IMG/VR virus record: IMGVR_UViG_2563366830_000018
Direction: 5' to 3' (one strand)
Source of the DNA: a virus
Taxonomy: Duplodnaviria > Heunggongvirae > Uroviricota > Caudoviricetes
Length of the DNA: 42,771 nt
In this document: in pieces, positions 28,021 through 37,603 of the stretch
Layout: every line of letters starts with the position of its first letter
Numbering within the stretch: position 1 is the first letter of the stretch
Notes under the pieces: generated by a model
The model's database searches: none
The model's input: the letters and a program-made list of their open reading frames with translations, nothing else
Told to the model about the DNA's origin: nothing
Made by a program: the position numbers and the translations under genes

Positions 28021-29016
28021 TCAGGCCAGCACGCCTATTGCCAGCGCACGATCGATAAAACGAAATATCAGCTCCAGCTGGGAGCCATACTTCTCTTCAA
28101 ATGCCACGGTATCCGCATGCAGCTCGTCGTGATGCTTTCTGCACAAAGGCAGCACGAAGAGGTCATGCGCTTTTGTACCCATTCCCCCCTGACCGTGGCC
28201 TATCAGGTGGTGGGGATCATCAGCAGGCTTTCCACAACATGCACACGGCTGCGTCTTAACCCAGCGCGTGTACTTTTCATTAACCCAGCGGCGACGTTTG
28301 GGGCGTAACATAAAAGACTCCGGCGACTCCGGATCCACTTTCAGCGCCAGCACCTTTTTCGCTTTATCCTGGATGATGCTGGTGGCAGGAACCGAAGGCA
28401 CAAGGTCACTTTCCCGGGTGACAGACGGCACAACAGGCTTCGGTAATCTCAGTGCCTTACGGGCTGCACTTTCCGGTAAGGCATCCGCCAGGTCATTACG
28501 AATCAGCCACCAGCACAGTTCCGGCATTGTCACAACGTGACTGTCATCAAAACCGAGATCCCGACGCACAACAGACAACACCCAGCGGGCACAGTTATCC
28601 GTTGCCATTGATTCCAGCCGTTCCGTGAACTGATCGCGCAGCTGGTTATCGCAGTGCCAGCACAGACGGATTGCACCCGGAGCGTGTCGCATTGTGGTCA
28701 TGTTCTCGCTGTGCCATCCGGAATGAGGCCACTGGCAGCCTTTTTCACGAAGTAACCAGCTTTCAAGACATTCCACGCCACCAGCACGACGGATCACTGC
28801 CTCATGGCGGAACACGGCCCGAACGGCAGGATCATCCGCCAGCGGTTGTGATGCCGCCGGAACGGCACCACTGGCGAAAGATGAATAACGCTCCGGCTCA
28901 GGCTCCAGCAGGACACGCCCCTGCATAAACAGGGGCATCAGCTCTGAACCTGGCCTGAACAATACGATCCCCATACGCGGGGCAATTTCAGGGGTCAGTA
29001 GTGCTCTCACAGTCAC
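28021..29016 (-). CDS. DUF968-like protein with C-terminal Cys/His-rich (HNH-like) motif
   Basis: 331-aa product; C-terminus WVKTQPCACCGKPADDPHHLIGHGQGG...CRKHHDELH; immediately upstream of Q. Confidence 0.55.
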   Translation of the reverse strand: MTVRALLTPEIAPRMGIVLFRPGSELMPLFMQGRVLLEPEPERYSSFASGAVPAASQPLADDPAVRAVFRHEAVIRRAGGVECLESWLLREKGCQWPHSGWHSENMTTMRHAPGAIRLCWHCDNQLRDQFTERLESMATDNCARWVLSVVRRDLGFDDSHVVTMPELCWWLIRNDLADALPESAARKALRLPKPVVPSVTRESDLVPSVPATSIIQDKAKKVLALKVDPESPESFMLRPKRRRWVNEKYTRWVKTQPCACCGKPADDPHHLIGHGQGGMGTKAHDLFVLPLCRKHHDELHADTVAFEEKYGSQLELIFRFIDRALAIGVLA

Positions 29017-29017
29017 C

Positions 29018-29845
29018 TCAATGAACGGTATCGAGCAGCTTTAACAGCTCAGGAAATCGGGATTCGAAGAAATGCGGCTGCGTCTCGCGCGGATTTGCAG
29101 GACTGGTGATGTTCTTGCCGAACATGCAGCCTTTCGCGGTCAGCGACCAGAATTTTTTGATGTTGTTAATCGCGGTACGGCTGTATCGTTCGCGTTGTTC
29201 AACGATCCCCAGCTTCGCCATCTGGTGATATGCCTGATTAGCCGTCAGGCGGATACCATACTGCTTCAGCAGTGCACTCAGCGACAGCGTAGGGCGGCTT
29301 GAACCATCTGGCGCATCAGCAGGTGCATCAATGGCATAGATCGGCATAAGTTCAGGAAGACCAGCTACCTTTGATAATTTCTGGTATGCACCAAGTTTCG
29401 AGGAGTTTGACAGATTTAGAGTCTTTGCTGCTGATTCAAGCAGAATGACCCCGGATTTAATTTTGTCGGATGTGGTTTCTTCTGGTGATGAATTATGAAG
29501 CGCATCAAAAGTACGTATCACTTTTAAGCTGAATGCCGGGCTGATCCACATTGCATATGCATAGACCAGCTCTTTACAGACATACGTCCCACCATTGCGC
29601 CCCTGAATGGTGATGACAGGAATACTACGGGAATCTCCCGTAGTTTCTTCTTCCAATAATTCCACAAGAGCCTTCGTTTCAGGACGACGCATAAACTCGT
29701 GAACTTCCAGCGAACGGGAGGAGCGATTCTCACCAGCGGCAAGAAGAGCAGCTTTCTGAAGGTCGTTAAGACAGTAGTTAGATTCGAAGTACTGGCGCAC
29801 AGAAACGCCATCAATTACAAGCAACTGATTCATTGGTTTCTCCAC
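29018..29845 (-). CDS. KilA-N domain protein (antirepressor-like)
   Basis: 275-aa product whose N-terminal roughly 100 aa resemble the KilA-N DNA-binding domain; nin-region position. Confidence 0.55.
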   Translation of the reverse strand: MEKPMNQLLVIDGVSVRQYFESNYCLNDLQKAALLAAGENRSSRSLEVHEFMRRPETKALVELLEEETTGDSRSIPVITIQGRNGGTYVCKELVYAYAMWISPAFSLKVIRTFDALHNSSPEETTSDKIKSGVILLESAAKTLNLSNSSKLGAYQKLSKVAGLPELMPIYAIDAPADAPDGSSRPTLSLSALLKQYGIRLTANQAYHQMAKLGIVEQRERYSRTAINNIKKFWSLTAKGCMFGKNITSPANPRETQPHFFESRFPELLKLLDTVH

Positions 29846-29995
29846 AAATTTTTATCCACGAGCGGGACTGCACTCCCTTTTCGTTGATGCAGGATGAACT
29901 TACTGCGATTTTTAATAGTTATCAAGGATACACTGTTCATAAATACAGTATCTTTAACGAGGTAATACCCAAATTTAGGGTGTTGCTCAATTCCG

Positions 29996-30391
29996 TTACC
30001 GAGTTGCTAATTTGCAACTCGCTTTTTCGTACTTACTGATAGTGATCTCGACCTTCCCCTCCGGGATAACCGGTCCCCACTCCACCAGCATTCTTTTCAC
30101 CTGACTGTCGTCTTCCCACACACCCGCGTGGGTCAGGGCGTCAAACAGCGCCTTGTTATAGTTGTCCAGATCGCGGATCCGGTTATCCGGAGGAAACAAC
30201 ACGATCTCCACTGAAGCAGGTGCCGACGTTGGTTTCGGCAGACGACGTAACTGCTCAACTATTGCTGCACACGCCGCGCTCTGGAATTTTCGCCCCGCCG
30301 CGCTTATCAGGCTCTTACCAGCAAACGCCCCTTTGTTGGGGTGTCGCCAGTACGTGTTCACGCTGGGCGGAAAAGGCAGTATTAGCTTCAT
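29996..30391 (-). CDS. rusA: Holliday junction resolvase RusA
   Basis: 131-aa product with RusA-like motifs (PPSVNTYW, RDLDNYNKALFDALTHAGVWEDDSQV). Confidence 0.85.
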   Translation of the reverse strand: MKLILPFPPSVNTYWRHPNKGAFAGKSLISAAGRKFQSAACAAIVEQLRRLPKPTSAPASVEIVLFPPDNRIRDLDNYNKALFDALTHAGVWEDDSQVKRMLVEWGPVIPEGKVEITISKYEKASCKLATR

Positions 30392-30714
30392 ACTTTCAGG
30401 CCCCTCTCATGTAACCAGTGGGTTGCACGCAGCCTTGCGTTTTCCTCACCGGCAAGCAGTGCGCGGATAATCCCGACCGCCTCGCTGTCGTCGTCCTTCA
30501 TCGCAGTATGAAGCGTTATCCCCCGGGCCACGCCACGCTTTATCGTGATGACGCCTTTTTTCTCCAGTGCGCGAAGATGCTCCACCGCTGCATTCACCGA
30601 ACGGTATCCCAGCATGGTTGCCACCTCCTGATTGGTTGGCGGGAAGCCACGTTCTTTCTGATAAGAAATCAGCATATCCAGCACCTGCTGCTGGCATTGA
30701 GTTAACGTCGTCAT
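30388..30714 (-). CDS. LexA N-terminal DNA-binding-domain-only protein
   Basis: 108-aa product similar to recalled LexA residues 1-70 (LTQCQQQVLDMLISYQKERGFPPTNQEVATMLGYRSVNAAVEHLRALEKKGVI); no S24 peptidase domain. Confidence 0.7.
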   Translation of the reverse strand: MTTLTQCQQQVLDMLISYQKERGFPPTNQEVATMLGYRSVNAAVEHLRALEKKGVITIKRGVARGITLHTAMKDDDSEAVGIIRALLAGEENARLRATHWLHERGLKV

Positions 30715-31364
30715 GCCGCCATCTCCCTGACCAGTTTTTCCGCCTGCTGGCGAACCTGCGCCAGAAACGCCTCACCACATGCCTCAAGTTCATCGCGCCC
30801 TATGTAGCTGATTGCCGGTCCCTTCCAGGTCTTGTCGAAAACAGCAATAGCACCAGCGAAGAAAGCACCTGTTGGCACCTGCTTTTCGTCTTTCGGGATA
30901 AACCAGGCAGGCAGTTCAAAACCAATACGCCCGCGAATAAAAGCAATATGATCTGCATCTTCCGGCCACCACACTTCGCTGGTGGCAGCTTTGATCAGGA
31001 AAACATAGCGCCCGCCTTTATCACGCATGGCACTGGCATGTTTCATGATGTAACGCATGCCGGTGATGTATTGCCCCTCATGCTGACTGGCGCGGCTGTA
31101 CGGGGGATTACCAAAGGCAGCACCTTTAAGCTCCGCAAGACGTTCAGACCAGTCATGCGCCAGCGCGTTGTCTTCCGCAGTGTAATACGCAGCACATTTG
31201 GCGTTATCACCGTCAGTGAACAGATCCAGAACAAACGGGCCAAACAGGGTGTTAATTCCCCAGAAAATGTTGTCCGGCGTGCGCCACTGATCGCCCACTT
31301 CCTTCAGTTCATGGGCTGGTTTGTTCCGCAGTTCCACCAGCGCCTGGCAATATTTATTACTCAT
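30711..31364 (-). CDS. Phage N6-adenine DNA methyltransferase (Dam-like)
   Basis: Contains a GNPPY motif (the (D/N)PPY catalytic signature); start taken at the in-frame ATG that overlaps the upstream stop. Confidence 0.7.
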   Translation of the reverse strand: MSNKYCQALVELRNKPAHELKEVGDQWRTPDNIFWGINTLFGPFVLDLFTDGDNAKCAAYYTAEDNALAHDWSERLAELKGAAFGNPPYSRASQHEGQYITGMRYIMKHASAMRDKGGRYVFLIKAATSEVWWPEDADHIAFIRGRIGFELPAWFIPKDEKQVPTGAFFAGAIAVFDKTWKGPAISYIGRDELEACGEAFLAQVRQQAEKLVREMAA

Positions 31365-31858
31365 TAAGCCCCCACGAAATTCCCTGACAGATACCACTCT
31401 TCACCCGATGCAGCGCGCTTGCTGCTTTTCCGTAAGCACCGCTCACGACGTGCCAGAAAATTGTTTCGTTCTGGCTGGGAGTGGCTTTCACGGAATGCCG
31501 CCATCCACACCGTTGCAGCACGACGGTATAAGCCCCTGGACTCCAGTTCTTCAGCCTGGCGGGTCAGGCACAAAATCACACGGGGATCGTTAGTGCCGAC
31601 ATAGAAATTGCGCACAGGTCTGGTTTCACGAACTGGTTGTGGTTCCGGATCCTGCGCTCTCTCAGTCAGGCGTGGGAAATGTCTGCGTGTATCTCCTTCA
31701 CAACGGTGAGCCACACGCCCACTCTGACGTAACTTGCTTGCTGACTGCAGAACGCGCTGCCGTGAGTAACCAGCAAAAGCATCCGCAATGTCTCCGGAAG
31801 TACAGCCCGGATGGGCTTCAATGAATTTCTGAACTTCATTCAAAAGACTCATGATCAC
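31364..31858 (-). CDS. Hypothetical winged-helix protein with PerC-like C-terminal motif
   Basis: 164-aa ORF; N-terminal wHTH-like region and C-terminal LESRGLYRRAATVWMAAF resembling the PerC family. Tentative. Confidence 0.45.
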   Translation of the reverse strand: MIMSLLNEVQKFIEAHPGCTSGDIADAFAGYSRQRVLQSASKLRQSGRVAHRCEGDTRRHFPRLTERAQDPEPQPVRETRPVRNFYVGTNDPRVILCLTRQAEELESRGLYRRAATVWMAAFRESHSQPERNNFLARRERCLRKSSKRAASGEEWYLSGNFVGA

Positions 31859-32673
31859 CCCCTGAATCCTTCCGGGATCTGGCTGTAGTCCACGTTGTCG
31901 TAACTGGCTTTGAAGTACGGGTCCTCGCGTCTGACTGCAGATACCGCAGGAACTTCCCAGGATTCTTCGAAATGACGATCCGGGCCAAAGAACGTGACAG
32001 CCTGTTTCACAAATTGTGTGCCGCTGTTACCCATCGCAGATACCCAGCCCGCGTAGCGTTTCACACCTTCCAGCATGGTTTCGGGGTTTACCCCCTCATT
32101 CAAACGGGCTTTCCAGGCTTTGAAGGCTGCAGATTTTGAATTGCCACCAGCACGTTTTGGATAGGCCAGCCATGCCTGCTCAAACTCCGGAGAGTATTCC
32201 GGTCGGTTTGAACGAACTCGCACAGACTCATCAGCAGATGCACCAACAGCTATTGGTTCATTGACTGGTTCTTTGACTGGTTCAAAAGAGTGACTGGTTC
32301 TGGGTGAATCTCCTGCACTACCCCCTGGTGCAACTCCTGCACTACCTGGTGAATTTGCTGCACCAGATAGTGAATTATTTGCACTACCCCCTAGTGAATC
32401 TCCTGCACCATCAAGATGAAGGAGATAGATATTACTTGAGTTACCTTTTTCACCTTTCCGGGTGACTTTTTTTACCAGCCCGGACTCACAAAGGGCCGCA
32501 ATATGATTCATCACAGAACGTTTGCTAATCTCGCACTGGTCAGCAATATGCTGGTAGCTGGGCCAGCACTCACCCTGATCGCTGGCATTATCAGCCAGCT
32601 TAATCAGAACCAGTTTTCGCAATGGATTTCCCACTCGAATTTTCATCGCTTTAACCATCAACTCCATACTCAT
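31855..32673 (-). CDS. Replication initiator (O-like, N-terminal winged helix), putative
   Basis: 272-aa product with N-terminal wHTH and a low-complexity linker encoded by direct DNA repeats (putative iterons), as in lambda O. Confidence 0.6.
   Translation of the reverse strand: MSMELMVKAMKIRVGNPLRKLVLIKLADNASDQGECWPSYQHIADQCEISKRSVMNHIAALCESGLVKKVTRKGEKGNSSNIYLLHLDGAGDSLGGSANNSLSGAANSPGSAGVAPGGSAGDSPRTSHSFEPVKEPVNEPIAVGASADESVRVRSNRPEYSPEFEQAWLAYPKRAGGNSKSAAFKAWKARLNEGVNPETMLEGVKRYAGWVSAMGNSGTQFVKQAVTFFGPDRHFEESWEVPAVSAVRREDPYFKASYDNVDYSQIPEGFRG
32250..32410. repeat. Direct repeats (putative ori iterons) inside the replication gene
   Basis: TGACTGGTTC three times and CTGCACTACC-type units three times within about 160 bp; approximate coordinates. 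Confidence 0.5.
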
Positions 32674-32894
32674 GCAGCACCTCCGAGATGCTTCATGTTT
32701 TTTCCGGAGCGAAAGGCTATAAGCGGCATACTGACGCGGTAATTACGGCCCAGCGGTTCACAAATCACCTTCTGACATTCACGGTCAACCAGGCTAACAC
32801 GTAGAACATGCCCTGCAGGCGTGGTGTACCACTGACCCGGACGAGGACAACGGAAAGTATGATTGGTAAACCGTTTGAAAATATTCCGGATCAT
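32670..32894 (-). CDS. Small hypothetical protein
   Basis: 74-aa ORF with 4-nt overlaps to both neighbours; no recognisable motif. Confidence 0.35.
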   Translation of the reverse strand: MIRNIFKRFTNHTFRCPRPGQWYTTPAGHVLRVSLVDRECQKVICEPLGRNYRVSMPLIAFRSGKNMKHLGGAA

Positions 32895-34051
32895 TTACGC
32901 CCCCTTACCTCTGAAGGGTTCAGCGACAAATTTATGAGACTGGCCAGTAGCGCCGCGTCGTTGATGCGGTCATACAGACTTACAGCCAGCGGGGATTCGG
33001 CTTTTGCCAACATGGGATAAAGCTGCTGCAGCCAGACCTTGTGGATTACCGACAGGTGGGAGTAAAGCACGCTGGCGTTATCTGCGGCATCGCTCAGCGT
33101 GGATGGCTTTGAAAGCAGTTTTTCCATCTGGTTAAAGGCATTGATGTATGCCTCTTTGAACCGGGCAGCACGTTTACCCGTGAAACCCATAGCAAGAAAC
33201 GCAAAACCGTCTCGTGTGATTTGATAGCAAAGGAGCTTGCGTGTACCACCGTTCGGTTGATTTACCGAAATCGATGTCTCCGCAAAATTGCGGGCACAAA
33301 ACTCAGGGGAACAATCCAGAGTGCGGATCTTTTTCAGCACATCGTCGTGACGCTTGGAGAAGAAGTTGGCAACAGCCAAAGAAGTGGTAACGGCCTGGCC
33401 GTTGTCAATGGTGATTTCAGGTTGAGTGAGGGCTGGGATCGTAGCCATGATGGCAGCCTCCGTTGACAGTGAAAAACTTCCACCACCGGAAACGCCAATT
33501 TCACTGGTGGTGAACTGGACGGGGTTGGCGTAACCGGCGTCAACGGAGACCGGCGCACCTTTCGGTGCCCCCGCCCAGCCCACCATAATCTGGATGTGAG
33601 CAAATGCGGACGATAAAAAAGACGCTGGCGCGTCATACATCGCCGTTGACAATTTCAGGACGCCAATCCCGGCACCCGCTTTATAAGGTGCCTGAACAGT
33701 GTAACGTCCCGGAATTGCAGAATCAATATGCTGGTGGTCCTTCACACTCAACAAAATCACGCCTGAATTTCCACAAAGGACTAAAGCACTCATGCGGGTA
33801 GTCTTTGCGAAGATAGATAACGCGCTGTGTTTCTGGCTCCCAACGAATAACATGGACATAAAGCCCTCTTCCGTCACGAAACCAGCGGTTAAGTTCCTGC
33901 ACAACTCGCCCCCCACAGTCAGGTAAAGTTCTCTGTGGTTACTTACAGCCAGGTGATTTGGTAATCTGCATTCATGCCGTAACAACAGGTGTTCAGCGAC
34001 GCTGACCACCAGCTGTTGCGACAAACGGTTATTTGCCGTTAAACTATTCAT
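32891..34051 (-). CDS. Rha-domain phage regulatory protein with about 200-aa N-terminal extension
   Basis: Central region (from MATIPALTQPEITIDNGQAV) resembles the Rha family. ATG at 34051 overlaps the upstream stop (ATGA); internal ATG at 33448 has SD GGAGG. Confidence 0.55.
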   Translation of the reverse strand: MNSLTANNRLSQQLVVSVAEHLLLRHECRLPNHLAVSNHRELYLTVGGELCRNLTAGFVTEEGFMSMLFVGSQKHSALSIFAKTTRMSALVLCGNSGVILLSVKDHQHIDSAIPGRYTVQAPYKAGAGIGVLKLSTAMYDAPASFLSSAFAHIQIMVGWAGAPKGAPVSVDAGYANPVQFTTSEIGVSGGGSFSLSTEAAIMATIPALTQPEITIDNGQAVTTSLAVANFFSKRHDDVLKKIRTLDCSPEFCARNFAETSISVNQPNGGTRKLLCYQITRDGFAFLAMGFTGKRAARFKEAYINAFNQMEKLLSKPSTLSDAADNASVLYSHLSVIHKVWLQQLYPMLAKAESPLAVSLYDRINDAALLASLINLSLNPSEVRGRK

Positions 34052-34605
34052 GCGTTAGTTTCTCCACAACCAGAAGCAATCGACGCCACGACGCCCGGAG
34101 CTGCACACTCGCGGGCGTTACTCTTTTCTGGAGCGCAGAAGATTTTGTAGACCAGTGCTGCATGCTCCTGGAGCTTCGAAATTGAAAGATACAGTTCGTC
34201 GTTAATTGCTGTCTTCTCATGCGGTTCCACTACACCGTCTTCGATTGCTGAACGAATCTGTCTGGAATAACTGCCGATCTGTTCAATGACTTCCAGCAGG
34301 CGCTGGTTTATATCGGCGTTCTCTACTGCCTCAATTTCAGGAAGCGATACGAACACCCCACCAGCAGACTGTGCGACAGCATCCGCAATGTAGTGAGTGC
34401 CAGCCGCACGCTGTAAAACCATTGCCCATCCCAGCGGGAAAATCTGATCGCCATCTGCACGAAGGCGGTTGAATAATGCGTTCTCTGTTACATCCAGCCA
34501 CTCAGCAGCTTCAGCGTAACCCCCCGGCAACGCCGCGATAGTTTTTCTGACAGCTTTCACGTACCACTCAGGCTGTTTTTCCACTTTCCAGTGATGATTA
34601 CCCAC
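34048..34605 (-). CDS. CII-like / YdaT-family regulator, putative
   Basis: 185-aa ORF immediately after the cro-like gene; HTH-like segment AAEWLDVTENALFNRL. Family assignment is tentative. Confidence 0.45.
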   Translation of the reverse strand: MGNHHWKVEKQPEWYVKAVRKTIAALPGGYAEAAEWLDVTENALFNRLRADGDQIFPLGWAMVLQRAAGTHYIADAVAQSAGGVFVSLPEIEAVENADINQRLLEVIEQIGSYSRQIRSAIEDGVVEPHEKTAINDELYLSISKLQEHAALVYKIFCAPEKSNARECAAPGVVASIASGCGETNA

Positions 34606-34858
34606 GGCTTACCTCCTGTTCCTGTGGTTTAAACCCATTCTGGTTTTGGCTAGATTGAAAACGTGCCGGATAAAGAATCTGCATTTCGCTGATTTCACCC
34701 TTAAAAAAATTGGCCAGACGTTCTGCAAGATCGATAGATGGAATTTGTTCCAGTCTTTCAATACGACTCAGCGTCGCTGGATTGACCTGAACGCCCGCAG
34801 CAACATGCTGCAAAGTAAATCCGTGCGCCTTACGCACATTCCGTAATGGTGATTGCAT
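34598..34858 (-). CDS. cro: Cro-like HTH (XRE family) repressor
   Basis: 86-aa product with HTH GFTLQHVAAGVQVNPATLSRIE, transcribed divergently from the cI-like gene. Confidence 0.8.
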   Translation of the reverse strand: MQSPLRNVRKAHGFTLQHVAAGVQVNPATLSRIERLEQIPSIDLAERLANFFKGEISEMQILYPARFQSSQNQNGFKPQEQEVSRG

Positions 34859-34872
34859 ATAACCTCCACATA

Positions 34873-34934
34873 TTGCGTGATGAGCATATTATTTCACGCA
34901 AATATTTTGCGCAAGTTGATTTGCTTAACGCGCA
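34873..34934. promoter_or_regulatory. Rightward operator region (OR-like)
   Basis: Inverted repeats TTGCGTGA / TCACGCAA, palindromic TTGCGCAA and TTGCTTAACGCGCAA (TTGC-N7-GCAA) between cro and cI. Confidence 0.6.
34885..34913 (-). promoter_or_regulatory. pR-like promoter for the cro-like gene
   Basis: On the minus strand, TTGCGC, 17-bp spacer, TAATAT, overlapping the operator repeats; strong SD GGAGG before cro. Confidence 0.55.
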
Positions 34935-34955
34935 ATAAAGAAATGTAATAAACGC

Positions 34956-35648
34956 ATGAACATAGGAAACCGAGTCAGACAACTTCGCCAGGCGAAGAAC
35001 ATGAAAATCGCCGATCTCGCTGAAGCAATAGGAGTGGATGCGGCGAATATCTCACGCCTGGAAACAGGTAAGCAGAAACAATTCACTGAACAAGCCCTGA
35101 GTAATATTGCCAGGAGCTTAGGTGTTGATATCGCTGATCTCTTTACCTCAGACGTCAAAAGTAATACTGTATGTAAAAACAGTATTGGTGAGGATGTTGC
35201 GCAGGTGAAGGATGTATTCCGTATTGAAATGCTGGATGTCAGTGCCAGTGCGGGAAATGGCCTTATCCAGGGCGGTGATGTCATTGATGTGATTCATGCC
35301 ATTGAATACAGAACTGATAATGCTGTATCGATGTTTGGCGGACGGCCAGCCAATCACATTAAAGTTATCAACGTTCGTGGGGACAGTATGTGTCCAACCA
35401 TTGAGCCAGGAGATCTCATCTTCGTTGATATCAGTATCAATCAGTTTGATGGGGATGGTATATATGTATTTGGTTTTGATGATAAAATTTACGTCAAACG
35501 ACTGCAAATGATACCTGATAAACTGCTGGTAATTTCTGATAATCAGATTTACCGCGAATGGGGAATTACCAGCGAAAACGAACATCGGTTTATGGTCTTT
35601 GGAAAGGTCTTAATCAGTCAGTCACAAACCCTTAAGCGACACAATTAA
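34956..35648 (+). CDS. cI: CI-like repressor (HTH plus S24 LexA-type peptidase domain)
   Basis: 230-aa product with N-terminal HTH (NMKIADLAEAIGVDAANISRLETGK), Ala-Gly site (SASAGNG) and Ser/Lys dyad context (GDSMCPTI, YVKRL). No SD upstream of the ATG. Confidence 0.88.
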   Translation: MNIGNRVRQLRQAKNMKIADLAEAIGVDAANISRLETGKQKQFTEQALSNIARSLGVDIADLFTSDVKSNTVCKNSIGEDVAQVKDVFRIEMLDVSASAGNGLIQGGDVIDVIHAIEYRTDNAVSMFGGRPANHIKVINVRGDSMCPTIEPGDLIFVDISINQFDGDGIYVFGFDDKIYVKRLQMIPDKLLVISDNQIYREWGITSENEHRFMVFGKVLISQSQTLKRHN

Positions 35649-35669
35649 CCCCTACCTCAACATCAATTA

Positions 35670-35690
35670 GCCACCAGAAGGTGGCTTTTC
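35670..35690 (+). terminator. Intrinsic terminator after the cI-like gene
   Basis: GCCACC-AGAA-GGTGGC hairpin followed by TTTTC. Confidence 0.6.
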
Positions 35691-35703
35691 ATTACCCACC
35701 AAA

Positions 35704-35756
35704 TTGCATATCTCGCAATAAAAACACTTGCATAATGCGCAACTTCATTTTATCTT
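35704..35756 (+). promoter_or_regulatory. Leftward operator/promoter region (OL/pL-like)
   Basis: Two 15-mers TTGCATATCTCGCAA and TTGCATAATGCGCAA 24 bp apart, same TTGC-N7-GCAA pattern as OR; candidate -35 TTGCAT and -10 TATCTT. Confidence 0.5.
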
Positions 35757-36149
35757 TCTTTCCAGACATACAAACAAGGTACTAACAAAATTTGGTTGTA
35801 ACACGGCGTATGGCACATGCGTCGTTAGCGGTCTGGTGACGTTAAAGGGGACAATCCACTCCTTGCTCGGGCAAACAAACCAGGTAGCCGGAATGTGCAA
35901 GTCAATGATGATGCTGATAAGACGCCTAACCAGCGTGGCGATCCGGTTTGACGCCTGGGAAGAGACCAGGGTGCAACGATGAGGGCATTTATGGAACCGC
36001 GACAAAGTGTGGTGCCGTAACTGGCTAAGTGCTCTCAGCGTTGTGGTAATCCGCGAAATGGCGCGGCGGTAAGTATGGCGGGGTTACTCTTTCCCCGTTG
36101 AGGACACCGGATTGTCAGGTTGACCATACGCCTGAGTGACAACCCCACC

Positions 36150-36213
36150 ACAACAGCCACTGCTTTGGCGGTACCAGTTTGTACCCTTGCTTCCGGCTGG
36201 TACCGCTCTTTTT
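36150..36213 (+). ncRNA. dicF: DicF-like small RNA candidate with intrinsic terminator
   Basis: TTTGGCGGTACCAGTTTGTACCC resembles the recalled DicF 5' half (TTTGGCGGTATCAGTTTTACTCC); 10-bp stem GCGGTACCAG/CTGGTACCGC then TCTTTTT. 5' end unknown. Confidence 0.45.
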
Positions 36214-36214
36214 A

Positions 36215-36301
36215 CAAAACAGAGAAGAGCATCACCGGACGACGGGCTCATAACCCAATCCATCCGGGCGGCTGTCACCGCAGGTGTTCTTCTCTGTTTT
36301 G
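36215..36301 (+). repeat. Perfect 14-bp inverted repeat flanking 59 nt
   Basis: CAAAACAGAGAAGA ... TCTTCTCTGTTTTG, between the DicF-like terminator and the next gene's RBS. Confidence 0.6.
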
Positions 36302-36350
36302 TGGAGAAACCAACCGACCTTGCAGGGTCGGTATGATGAGGAGCAGCAAA

Positions 36351-36713
36351 ATGGCTAGCGTACGCAGTACTGATGTGCAGGTATTTATCGTAGAACTGGA
36401 CGGCGGCGTATTTGAAACCAAACTCGGCGCAGTTCTCAGTGAAGTCGCTTCCGGTGTGATGAACACGAAAAACAAAGGTAAAGTCTCGGTCAATCTGGAC
36501 ATCGAACCGTTTGATGAGAACCGTGTGAAAATCAAACACAAACTCTCATATGTTCGCCCGACTAACCGCGGGAAAATCTCCGAAGAAGACACCACCGAAA
36601 CGCCGATGTATGTCAATCGAGGTGGTCGCCTGACTATTCTGCAGGAAGACCAGGGACAATTACTGACTCTTGCCGGTGAACCTGACGGAAAACTCCGCGC
36701 AGCAGGTCGTTAA
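36351..36713 (+). CDS. Hypothetical protein (YfdP-like by position)
   Basis: In-frame ATG at 36351 with SD GAGGAG gives a 120-aa product (MASVRSTDVQVFIVELDGG...), first of a block resembling yfdPQRS. Confidence 0.6.
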   Translation: MASVRSTDVQVFIVELDGGVFETKLGAVLSEVASGVMNTKNKGKVSVNLDIEPFDENRVKIKHKLSYVRPTNRGKISEEDTTETPMYVNRGGRLTILQEDQGQLLTLAGEPDGKLRAAGR

Positions 36714-36778
36714 TATCGTTCGTAATAAACTGATTATTTATCTCATCACTGAATATCTTTATATAGTGAGGACTTATT

Positions 36779-37603
36779 ATGTCTCAGAACTTAGACGCAA
36801 CCGCAATTAATCAAATCCATGCCCTTATTTCTGCTCAGGGTGTTAATGAAATTATCAGTAAGATTGGTGCCGATGCTGTGGCATTGCCTGAGAATTTCCG
36901 CATTCATGATCTGGAAAAATTTAATTTAAATCGCTTCCGTTTCCGTGGTGCACTTTCCACTGCCAGCATCGATGATTTTACCCGTTATTCTAAAGATCTT
37001 GCAGATGAAGGCACCCGCTGCTTTATCGATGCCGATAATATGCGTGCCGTCAGTGTGCTTAACCTGGGTACTATTGATGAGCCAGGTCACGCAGATAACA
37101 CTGCCACTCTCAAACTGAAAAAGACAGCACCGTTCTCTGCTCTGTTGTCTGTTAACGGCGAGCGTAACTCCCAGAAGTCACTGGCAGAATGGATCGAAGA
37201 CTGGGCCGACTACCTTGTGGGCTTTGATGCTAATGGTGACGCTATTCAGGCAACAAAAGCGGCTGCGGCAGTCCGTAAAATCACGATTGAAGCAAACCAG
37301 ACCGCTGATTTTGAAGATAATTACTTCAGCGGCAAACGCTCCCTGATGGAGTCTGTCGAAGCGAAGACCAAAGACATTATGCCAGTGGCATTTGAATTTA
37401 AATGCGTTCCGTTTGAAGGTCTGAAAGAACGTCCGTTTAAATTACGCCTCAGCATTATCACTGGCGATCGTCCTGTACTGGTTCTGCGCATTATTCAGCT
37501 GGAAGCGGTGCAGGAAGAAATGGCTAACGAATTTCGTGATCTGCTTGTTGAGAAATTCAAAGACAGCAAAGTAGAAACCTTTATTGGTACTTTCACCGCC
37601 TGA
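36779..37603 (+). CDS. yfdQ: YfdQ-like protein (DUF2303)
   Basis: 274-aa ORF directly upstream of the HD-domain gene; same size and context as recalled YfdQ. Confidence 0.6.

Follow-up and report, generated by a model that had tools for sequence, protein, structure and literature searches.

A lambdoid prophage nin-region gene of E. coli encodes a protease-less LexA DNA-binding domain with a conserved helical tail

The stretch of DNA analysed here (the window; 42,771 nt, the whole of IMG/VR virus record IMGVR_UViG_2563366830_000018) is a lambdoid E. coli prophage, and the gene under study, in its nin region, encodes a 108-aa protein with a LexA-type DNA-binding domain (DBD); gene and product are called LexA-DBD below. 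The protein is a LexA DBD plus a small conserved helical module, lacks the S24 peptidase domain of LexA, and is encoded by a gene translationally coupled within the early-right (nin) operon. We give a probability of roughly 35% to the reading that it is a delayed-early binder of LexA-type boxes that is insensitive to activated RecA (RecA*). The gene and its parts are as follows.

30388..30714, minus strand: LexA-DBD gene, 108 aa (PHROG 362; SfV orf42 family), from the open reading frame (ORF) and Pfam PF01726
30511..30714, minus strand: winged helix-turn-helix (wHTH), residues 1-68, with helices at 6-22, 28-35 and 40-52 and wing strands at 56-58 and 66-68
30559..30600, minus strand: recognition helix, residues 39-52 (SVNAAVEHLRALEK; LexA: SPNAAEEHLKALAR), from sequence alignments
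30409..30492, minus strand: two-helix hairpin, residues 75-102 (helices 75-87 and 93-102; predicted local distance difference test score, pLDDT, 88-90), in the place of the S24 domain

The product is a LexA DNA-binding domain joined to a helical module

The ORF (30388-30714, minus strand) runs from ATG to TGA. An earlier inspection of the letters alone (the original prediction) had likened its 108-aa product to the N-terminal domain of LexA, and alignment and superposition bear this out. Pfam LexA_DNA_bind (PF01726) is matched by residues 1-65 over the complete model (positions 1-65 of 65; E=2.9e-19, 69 bits, cut-off 23.7), a phmmer search of PDB finds the N-terminal domain of E. coli LexA (1lea) at E=6e-16, and the best Foldseek matches of the N-terminal part are 1lea and 3jso, with a root-mean-square deviation of 1.1-1.3 Å and 51% identity (LexA residues 1-68). 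MntR/DtxR-, MarR- and Rrf2-type wHTH regulators share a similar layout, and their matches to the protein are weak. The profile of PHROG 362 (‘transcriptional repressor’) covers the whole product (residues 1-108 against positions 1-106 of 106; E=1.2e-59), making it a clear member of that group; the gene is already annotated and very common. PADLOC returned only a marginal wHTH match (E=3.9e-4, 18 bits), and membership of an anti-phage defence system was rejected on that result.

The absence of a protease, also noted in the original prediction, holds: a Pfam search finds no Peptidase_S24 (PF00717) in the protein, which ends at residue 108 with rusA next, and the lexA equivalog model TIGR00498 is matched only over positions 1-91 of 203, at 70.4 bits (cut-off 110.95). 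With no S24 domain and a sub-cut-off equivalog score, the protein fails membership of LexA proper. Since the S24 domain is absent, it is unable to self-cleave under RecA*, as had been proposed.

The description ‘DNA-binding-domain-only’ was mistaken, as a conserved helical tail of 35 residues follows the wHTH. In an AlphaFold2 model of the monomer (mean pLDDT 82, from a shallow alignment of 21 sequences) a low-confidence linker (residues 69-74) leads into the two-helix hairpin, for which a structure search gave no informative match. Relatives across Enterobacterales keep the hairpin even at 40% identity, with the pattern EAxxhhRxLhxxxxxAxxxAxxhL, in which A97 and L101 are invariant. The HMMER alignment to LexA extends to LexA residue 86 and pairs ‘…IRALLAGEE’ with ‘…GRVAAGEP’ of the LexA cleavage region, which suggests descent from a 5′ fragment of lexA. 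Here A88-G89 aligns with LexA A84-G85, relatives carry AK, AN or VG, the stretch is predicted to be helical, and no protease is present. The ...VAA degron exposed by LexA cleavage is not where the phage protein ends.

According to a secondary source (PMC3091678), LexA contacts DNA through Ser39, Asn41, Ala42, Glu44 and Glu45. In the phage protein the corresponding residues are S, N, A, V and E, so that four of the five listed contacts (S39, N41, A42 and E45) are kept, and helix 3 (SVNAAVEHL) is identical to that of LexA (SPNAAEEHL) at 7/9 positions. Wing residues R64-G65-I66 are invariant across the family. The spacing of LexA boxes has been attributed to wing contacts (PMC8565304), and the retained wing was counted in favour of LexA-box binding.

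Genomic position, selection and distribution

Late and early-right genes of the prophage lie on the minus strand, and cI, the early-left genes and int on the plus strand. The order in the nin region is replication gene, PerC-like gene, dam, LexA-DBD gene, rusA, a 150-bp gap, KilA-N gene, DUF968/HNH gene and Q; the LexA-DBD gene lies between the replication gene and Q, and placing it in the nin region was right. The other genes referred to in this work are listed below.

31855-32673: replication gene, at the upstream flank of the nin region
31364-31858, minus strand: homologue of PerC-family activators (yfdN-like), upstream of dam
30711..31364, minus strand: Dam-type N6-adenine methyltransferase (Pfam Dam, E=1.1e-45)
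29996..30391, minus strand: RusA Holliday-junction resolvase (Pfam RusA, E=6.4e-15)
29018..29845, minus strand: KilA-N domain regulator gene (Pfam KilA-N, E=1.3e-15; PHROG 129 ‘transcriptional regulator’)
28021..29016, minus strand: DUF968/HNH-like gene (Pfam DUF968, E=1.9e-81)
27632..28018, minus strand: antiterminator Q, at the end of the nin region (Pfam Phage_antitermQ, E=1.5e-47)
34598-34858, minus strand: cro
34956..35648, plus strand: CI repressor, helix-turn-helix (HTH) plus S24 peptidase (Peptidase_S24, E=5.8e-19)
1..249, plus strand: DinI-like gene at the prophage end (Pfam DinI, E=1.1e-19; PHROG 189)

The LexA-DBD start codon overlaps the dam stop codon and its stop codon overlaps the rusA start codon, each through a 4-nt ATGA, and a sigma-70 promoter scan around the gene found nothing reaching threshold; the gene is translationally coupled within the early-right operon and is without a promoter of its own. 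The ratio of nonsynonymous to synonymous substitution rates (dN/dS) is 0.08-0.28, and purifying selection is evident. The DinI-like gene and the CI repressor named in the original prediction are both in place, and the CI sequence contains an Ala-Gly site (SASAGNG) as well as GDSM and VKRL motifs.

The gene is found in 2233/5426 complete E. coli genomes (~40%), in up to four copies each. Copies with 95-99% identity, sharing the dam, LexA-DBD gene, rusA synteny, occur in SfV (orf42, ‘unknown’), SfII, SfIV, mEp460 (gp46), phage cdtI, Stx2c phages, Stx2a_WGPS2 and others, and the 108-aa length is kept in thousands of sequences. Tail-bearing relatives, from a related-locus search for the family that used a 7-sequence alignment, are all from Enterobacterales (Citrobacter, Salmonella, Hafnia, Cronobacter, Kosakonia, Enterobacter, Cedecea, Klebsiella). 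Short proteins with only a LexA DBD are frequent across many phage groups. Public names rest on homology (NCBI ‘LexA family transcriptional regulator’, ‘LexA repressor’) and some are wrong (‘SOS-response repressor and protease LexA’, ‘RecA-mediated autopeptidase’, ‘Rrf2 family transcriptional regulator’); RefSeq phage records likewise propagate the name ‘phosphoadenosine phosphosulfate reductase’ for the adjacent Dam. A full-text literature search, with most subscription journals outside its coverage, found no functional study of this coliphage protein.

LexA boxes in and beside the prophage

LexA boxes were sought with a weight matrix built from ~30 E. coli SOS boxes (a non-curated set), on which known sites score 12-28 bits (median 21). 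Two strong boxes were found within the window, against 0.1 expected by chance:

29931..29950, no strand assigned: strong LexA box CACTGTTCATAAATACAGTA, an exact CTGT-N8-ACAG, 21.8 bits, above the known-site median
35165..35184, no strand assigned: near-consensus LexA box TACTGTATGTAAAAACAGTA in cI, at linker codons 70-77, 25.5 bits

The window starts at the dinI start codon, and the region upstream of dinI, outside the window, was read from NZ_CM129861.1. Two further boxes lie there in tandem, 14-61 bp upstream of dinI (2440-2459, 20.9 bits, and 2468-2487, 20.8 bits, in the coordinates of that locus, L025), directly after a TTGACA hexamer, so that the search of the prophage for LexA boxes proposed earlier yields two in the window and two more just to its left. 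Strain SW070919 carries a near-identical left end, where the prophage adjoins yecD and dinI is its last gene. The prophage in NZ_CP014111.1 has a mosaic relationship to the window.

rusA and the KilA-N gene are separated by 150 bp (29846-29995), and the first box in the window sits there, upstream of the KilA-N gene, with a 22-bp palindrome (30000-30021) before it. In mEp460 and SfII the gap is only 20 bp, and the KilA-N allele is 66-69% identical. A sigma-70 scan around both boxes gave nothing reaching threshold, with no convincing promoter on either strand at the cI box; a hand-picked candidate after the 29931 box (TTGATA-17-TAAGTT) was rejected, as it matches only 8/12 positions.

The 209-nt offset of the box in cI is shared by SfII, ST64B, Klebsiella phage P7641, Citrobacter and Kluyvera, where the CI proteins have 70-96% identity to that of the window. 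In all of them ACTGT…ACAGT is retained amid hypervariable linker codons, which suggests selection at the DNA level for LexA binding. A literature search found no report of intragenic LexA boxes in cI. Use of this box to drive a CI consisting of the C-terminal domain only, starting from Met92, was considered and rejected, since the residue is I, V or L in relatives.

Across 12 gene-carrying loci CTGT-N8-ACAG occurs 11 times against 2.1 expected and, when CTGT-Nx-ACAG and ACAG-Nx-CTGT were counted there for x=0-20, only the x=8 CTGT spacing was enriched. A scan of 25000-36900 for inverted repeats returned only an OR-like repeat, the cI LexA box and a palindrome at the rusA 3′ end, and no candidate private operator. 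The OR-like repeat, a perfect 8-bp inverted repeat (TTGCGTGA-N13-TCACGCAA; 34873-34901) between cro and cI, is probably an OR operator belonging to this immunity type.

The window carries, between Q and the lysis genes, genes for an AraC-family HTH protein (25615-26328, minus strand) and a PHROG 8498 protein (26939-27583, minus strand), with a weak LexA-like site (25932-25951, 15.6 bits) within the AraC-like gene. A recurrent LexA box downstream of Q, TACTGTAAAAATAAACAGTG, is present in mEp460 (1712-1731 in L001) and in ~33/80 IMG/VR loci and is missing from the window. In mEp460 the opening codons of a gene for a 350-aa DNA methylase, just before the lysis genes, overlap the box; this looks like an SOS-gated moron, and the window has other genes at that place.

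A proposed uncleavable binder of LexA boxes

That the LexA-DBD protein binds LexA boxes is plausible by analogy, because the free N-terminal domain of LexA keeps SOS-box binding and repression: it binds SOS boxes and represses, and cells need ClpXP to clear it (PMC10584840). The hosts of the hairpin family, Enterobacterales, have a LexA that uses a CTGT-N8-ACAG-type motif. The mechanism that we infer, including DNA specificity, dimerisation, repression and timing, would run as follows. Made from the delayed-early nin transcript, with its translation coupled to that of dam and rusA, the protein would appear only after induction or infection. Two copies, joined through the hairpin, through wing contacts on DNA or through both, would bind SOS boxes of the CTGT-N8-ACAG type; the hairpin stands where LexA has its dimerising, self-cleaving S24 domain, and plausibly supplies dimerisation. 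Repression of LexA-controlled promoters would then be re-imposed once host LexA has been destroyed, the targets being host SOS genes together with the boxes of the prophage itself (at dinI, before the KilA-N gene and within cI), and the protein would in this way alter the SOS state while the phage grows lytically or once it has infected a cell.

This timing bears on the suggestion that the phage tunes its own induction threshold. Given its position in the early operon and the lack of a promoter-like site, the protein would be made only after CI has been inactivated, and is thus unlikely to set that threshold; of the original proposal, insensitivity to RecA* stands and this second part fits poorly.

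Several observations weigh against LexA-box binding. E44 is replaced by V, A or F in the whole family, and E45 and A42 vary within the same host range (SVNTIAGHL in Citrobacter, SSNAVLLHL in Klebsiella), variation that would be surprising in proteins all aimed at invariant host boxes. GIL01 gp6, the one characterised analogue, evolved a new specificity. In 80 related IMG/VR loci, 71 of which carry the gene, boxes recur at three places (in cI, 934 bp upstream of the DUF968 gene and 2.3-3.6 kb downstream, past Q), and about one third of the 71 have no strong LexA box within 10 kb. Conversely, the cI box is present in ST64B and P7641, neither of which has the LexA-DBD gene, and the segment with the 29931-29950 box is found in 185/5426 E. 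coli genomes, compared with 2233 with the gene, and in 7/80 IMG/VR loci. Boxes and gene are thus not strictly linked. The 80 loci, fetched through DUF968, are nearly clonal and include only six usable loci without the gene, leaving this comparison little power, and locus samples here are phylogenetically non-independent. If the protein reads SOS boxes, its constant targets would need to be those of the host.

A more specific version, in which the protein is a stable mimic of the LexA N-terminal domain that is insensitive to RecA*, escapes ClpXP and closes the SOS regulon again after commitment to lysis, is tentative, and we would expect it to fail more often than hold. Were it true, host SOS toxins and division inhibitors would be silenced, as would the LexA-gated genes of the phage itself (dinI, the KilA-N regulator and the site internal to cI) and, where rival elements share the cell, their LexA-gated antirepressors or colicins, and the LexA-DBD::RusA fusion proteins described below would be the same device with RusA as dimerising scaffold.

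If SOS boxes are bound, lambdoid phages, including Stx2c- and Stx2a-converting ones, would shut down the DNA-damage response after using it for induction, with possible effects on Shiga-toxin phage yield, SOS mutagenesis, persistence toxins and competition between co-resident prophages. The family would also represent a second independent phage capture of the LexA DBD, after GIL01 gp6, with a recognition helix that is still host-like. If the protein instead has its own operator or serves RusA, it would be an ordinary accessory nin gene product.

Alternative roles

The alternative that survives best, though on balance unlikely, is a phage-specific transcription factor whose LexA-derived domain has drifted from the SOS box to an operator of its own, through which a phage promoter would be activated or repressed. 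GIL01 gp6 provides the precedent: this truncated homologue of LexA recognises GaCACAnnTGTGaC and switches on the late promoter P3 (PMC6182141). The family-wide replacement of E44 and the variability of positions 42-45 resemble the operator co-evolution typical of phage regulators, the lack of a strict link between gene and LexA boxes fits such a role, and so does the abundance of short LexA-DBD-only proteins in phages. However, no other conserved palindrome or CTGT spacing variant is enriched in gene-carrying loci, the gene lacks its own promoter and operator, and the late genes here are already served by Q. The recognition helix is also much nearer to that of host LexA than the gp6 helix (SHKTAHRYL) is. 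BLASTP gave no alignment between the window protein and gp6 at E<=100, and on sequence grounds the two appear to be independent captures.

It is improbable, though less so than the two explanations that follow it, that the protein assists the DNA-processing enzymes encoded next to it, RusA above all, as a DNA-binding accessory, with the hairpin docking onto RusA or replacing a covalent link and the domain tethering or modulating the resolvase instead of controlling transcription. RusA lies immediately downstream, with the ATGA overlap, in 71/71 gene-carrying IMG/VR loci, while the upstream neighbour varies (Dam in 54, PerC in 16), and in-frame LexA-DBD::RusA fusions of 199-212 aa form ~25 clusters (90% identity) in Kluyvera and Klebsiella. 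These fusions (e.g. L008, 8001-8627; P0316-P0339) have lost the tail and stop codon and keep the rusA ATG at the junction, so that exactly the hairpin is missing, and the arrangement persists across two RusA alleles. Elsewhere a LexA DBD is joined to DUF968/HNH (P0158) or to an HNH_3 homing-endonuclease domain (P0208). On the other hand, RusA is common without the LexA-DBD gene (ST64B, P7641), loci in Kosakonia and Enterobacter have the gene without an adjoining RusA, and fusions of neighbouring genes arise easily in tightly packed operons. Moreover, a dimeric RusA would supply the dimerisation of a repressor, so the fusions fit LexA-box binding too. One E. coli ‘fusion’ (P0394) was discarded as a one-off internal deletion. 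Further architectures include a PTPS/QueD fusion (P0153) and tandem double DBDs, possibly single-chain pseudo-dimers, and P0132, P0133, P0148, P0155 and P0162 belong to the same multi-architecture set. In ST64B (sb44; L002, 1624-2517) and Kluyvera the slot that the LexA-DBD gene has in E. coli phages is taken by a ~80-aa C-terminal extension of Dam that is unrelated to the LexA domain.

We consider it very improbable that the protein is a decoy or pseudo-substrate, its vestigial linker and cleavage-site stretch engaging RecA*, the catalytic cleft of LexA or CI, or ClpX. The HMMER and TIGR00498 alignments do run through LexA residues 86-91, including Ala-Gly, but this dipeptide is not conserved in the family, the stretch is predicted with high confidence to be helical whereas cleavage needs a strand, and the strong conservation of DNA-contact residues would be left unexplained.

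A functionless, decaying remnant of a captured lexA, suggested by truncation relative to LexA and by occasional frameshifted or fused database variants (P0394, P0023, P0033), is scarcely credible: the 108-aa form and its tail are conserved in thousands of genomes, down to 40% identity, as are synteny and translational coupling, and on these grounds and the low dN/dS a truncated pseudogene was rejected.

Comparison with known systems

In functional terms, the LexA-DBD protein belongs with the truncated LexA homologues that phages encode. gp6 established this kind, which is frequent in viral structure databases; the protein here stands apart by its conserved helical tail, host-like recognition helix and lambdoid context. 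In both the Betatectivirus GIL01 and this prophage, an early phage gene encodes a LexA DBD without protease and the phage is also wired to host LexA. gp6, however, is a 66-aa protein without a tail, derived from Bacillus LexA, whose helix (with K38) recognises a non-SOS palindrome, at about -43.5, and which activates a late promoter, whereas the window protein has a LexA-like helix and belongs to a Q-controlled lambdoid phage.

The nearest structural counterpart is the LexA(1-84) fragment of E. coli (1lea, 3jso), which shares the winged-helix fold, 7/9 recognition-helix residues and the conserved wing. That fragment is a cleavage product with E44 and a ClpX-recognised ...VAA end, while the phage protein is encoded by a separate gene and has V44 and a two-helix tail. 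A functional likeness to lexA3 (Ind-), used in PMC3121763, would follow if the phage protein binds LexA boxes, as each would then be a LexA-type DNA binder beyond removal by RecA*. lexA3, though, is a full-length, dimeric and constitutive LexA with a mutated cleavage site; the phage protein lacks the whole domain and would be expressed only in lytic growth.

Among LexA-gated phage modules (the dinI-antirepressor loci of Gifsy prophages, 186 Tum and N15 AntC), the presence of boxes before dinI and before a regulator gene of the nin region is much like Gifsy, whose LexA-gated cassettes also resemble the LexA box and KilA-N arrangement seen here. Those systems rely on host LexA alone and encode no LexA look-alike, whereas here such a protein is encoded and CI itself is of the S24 type.

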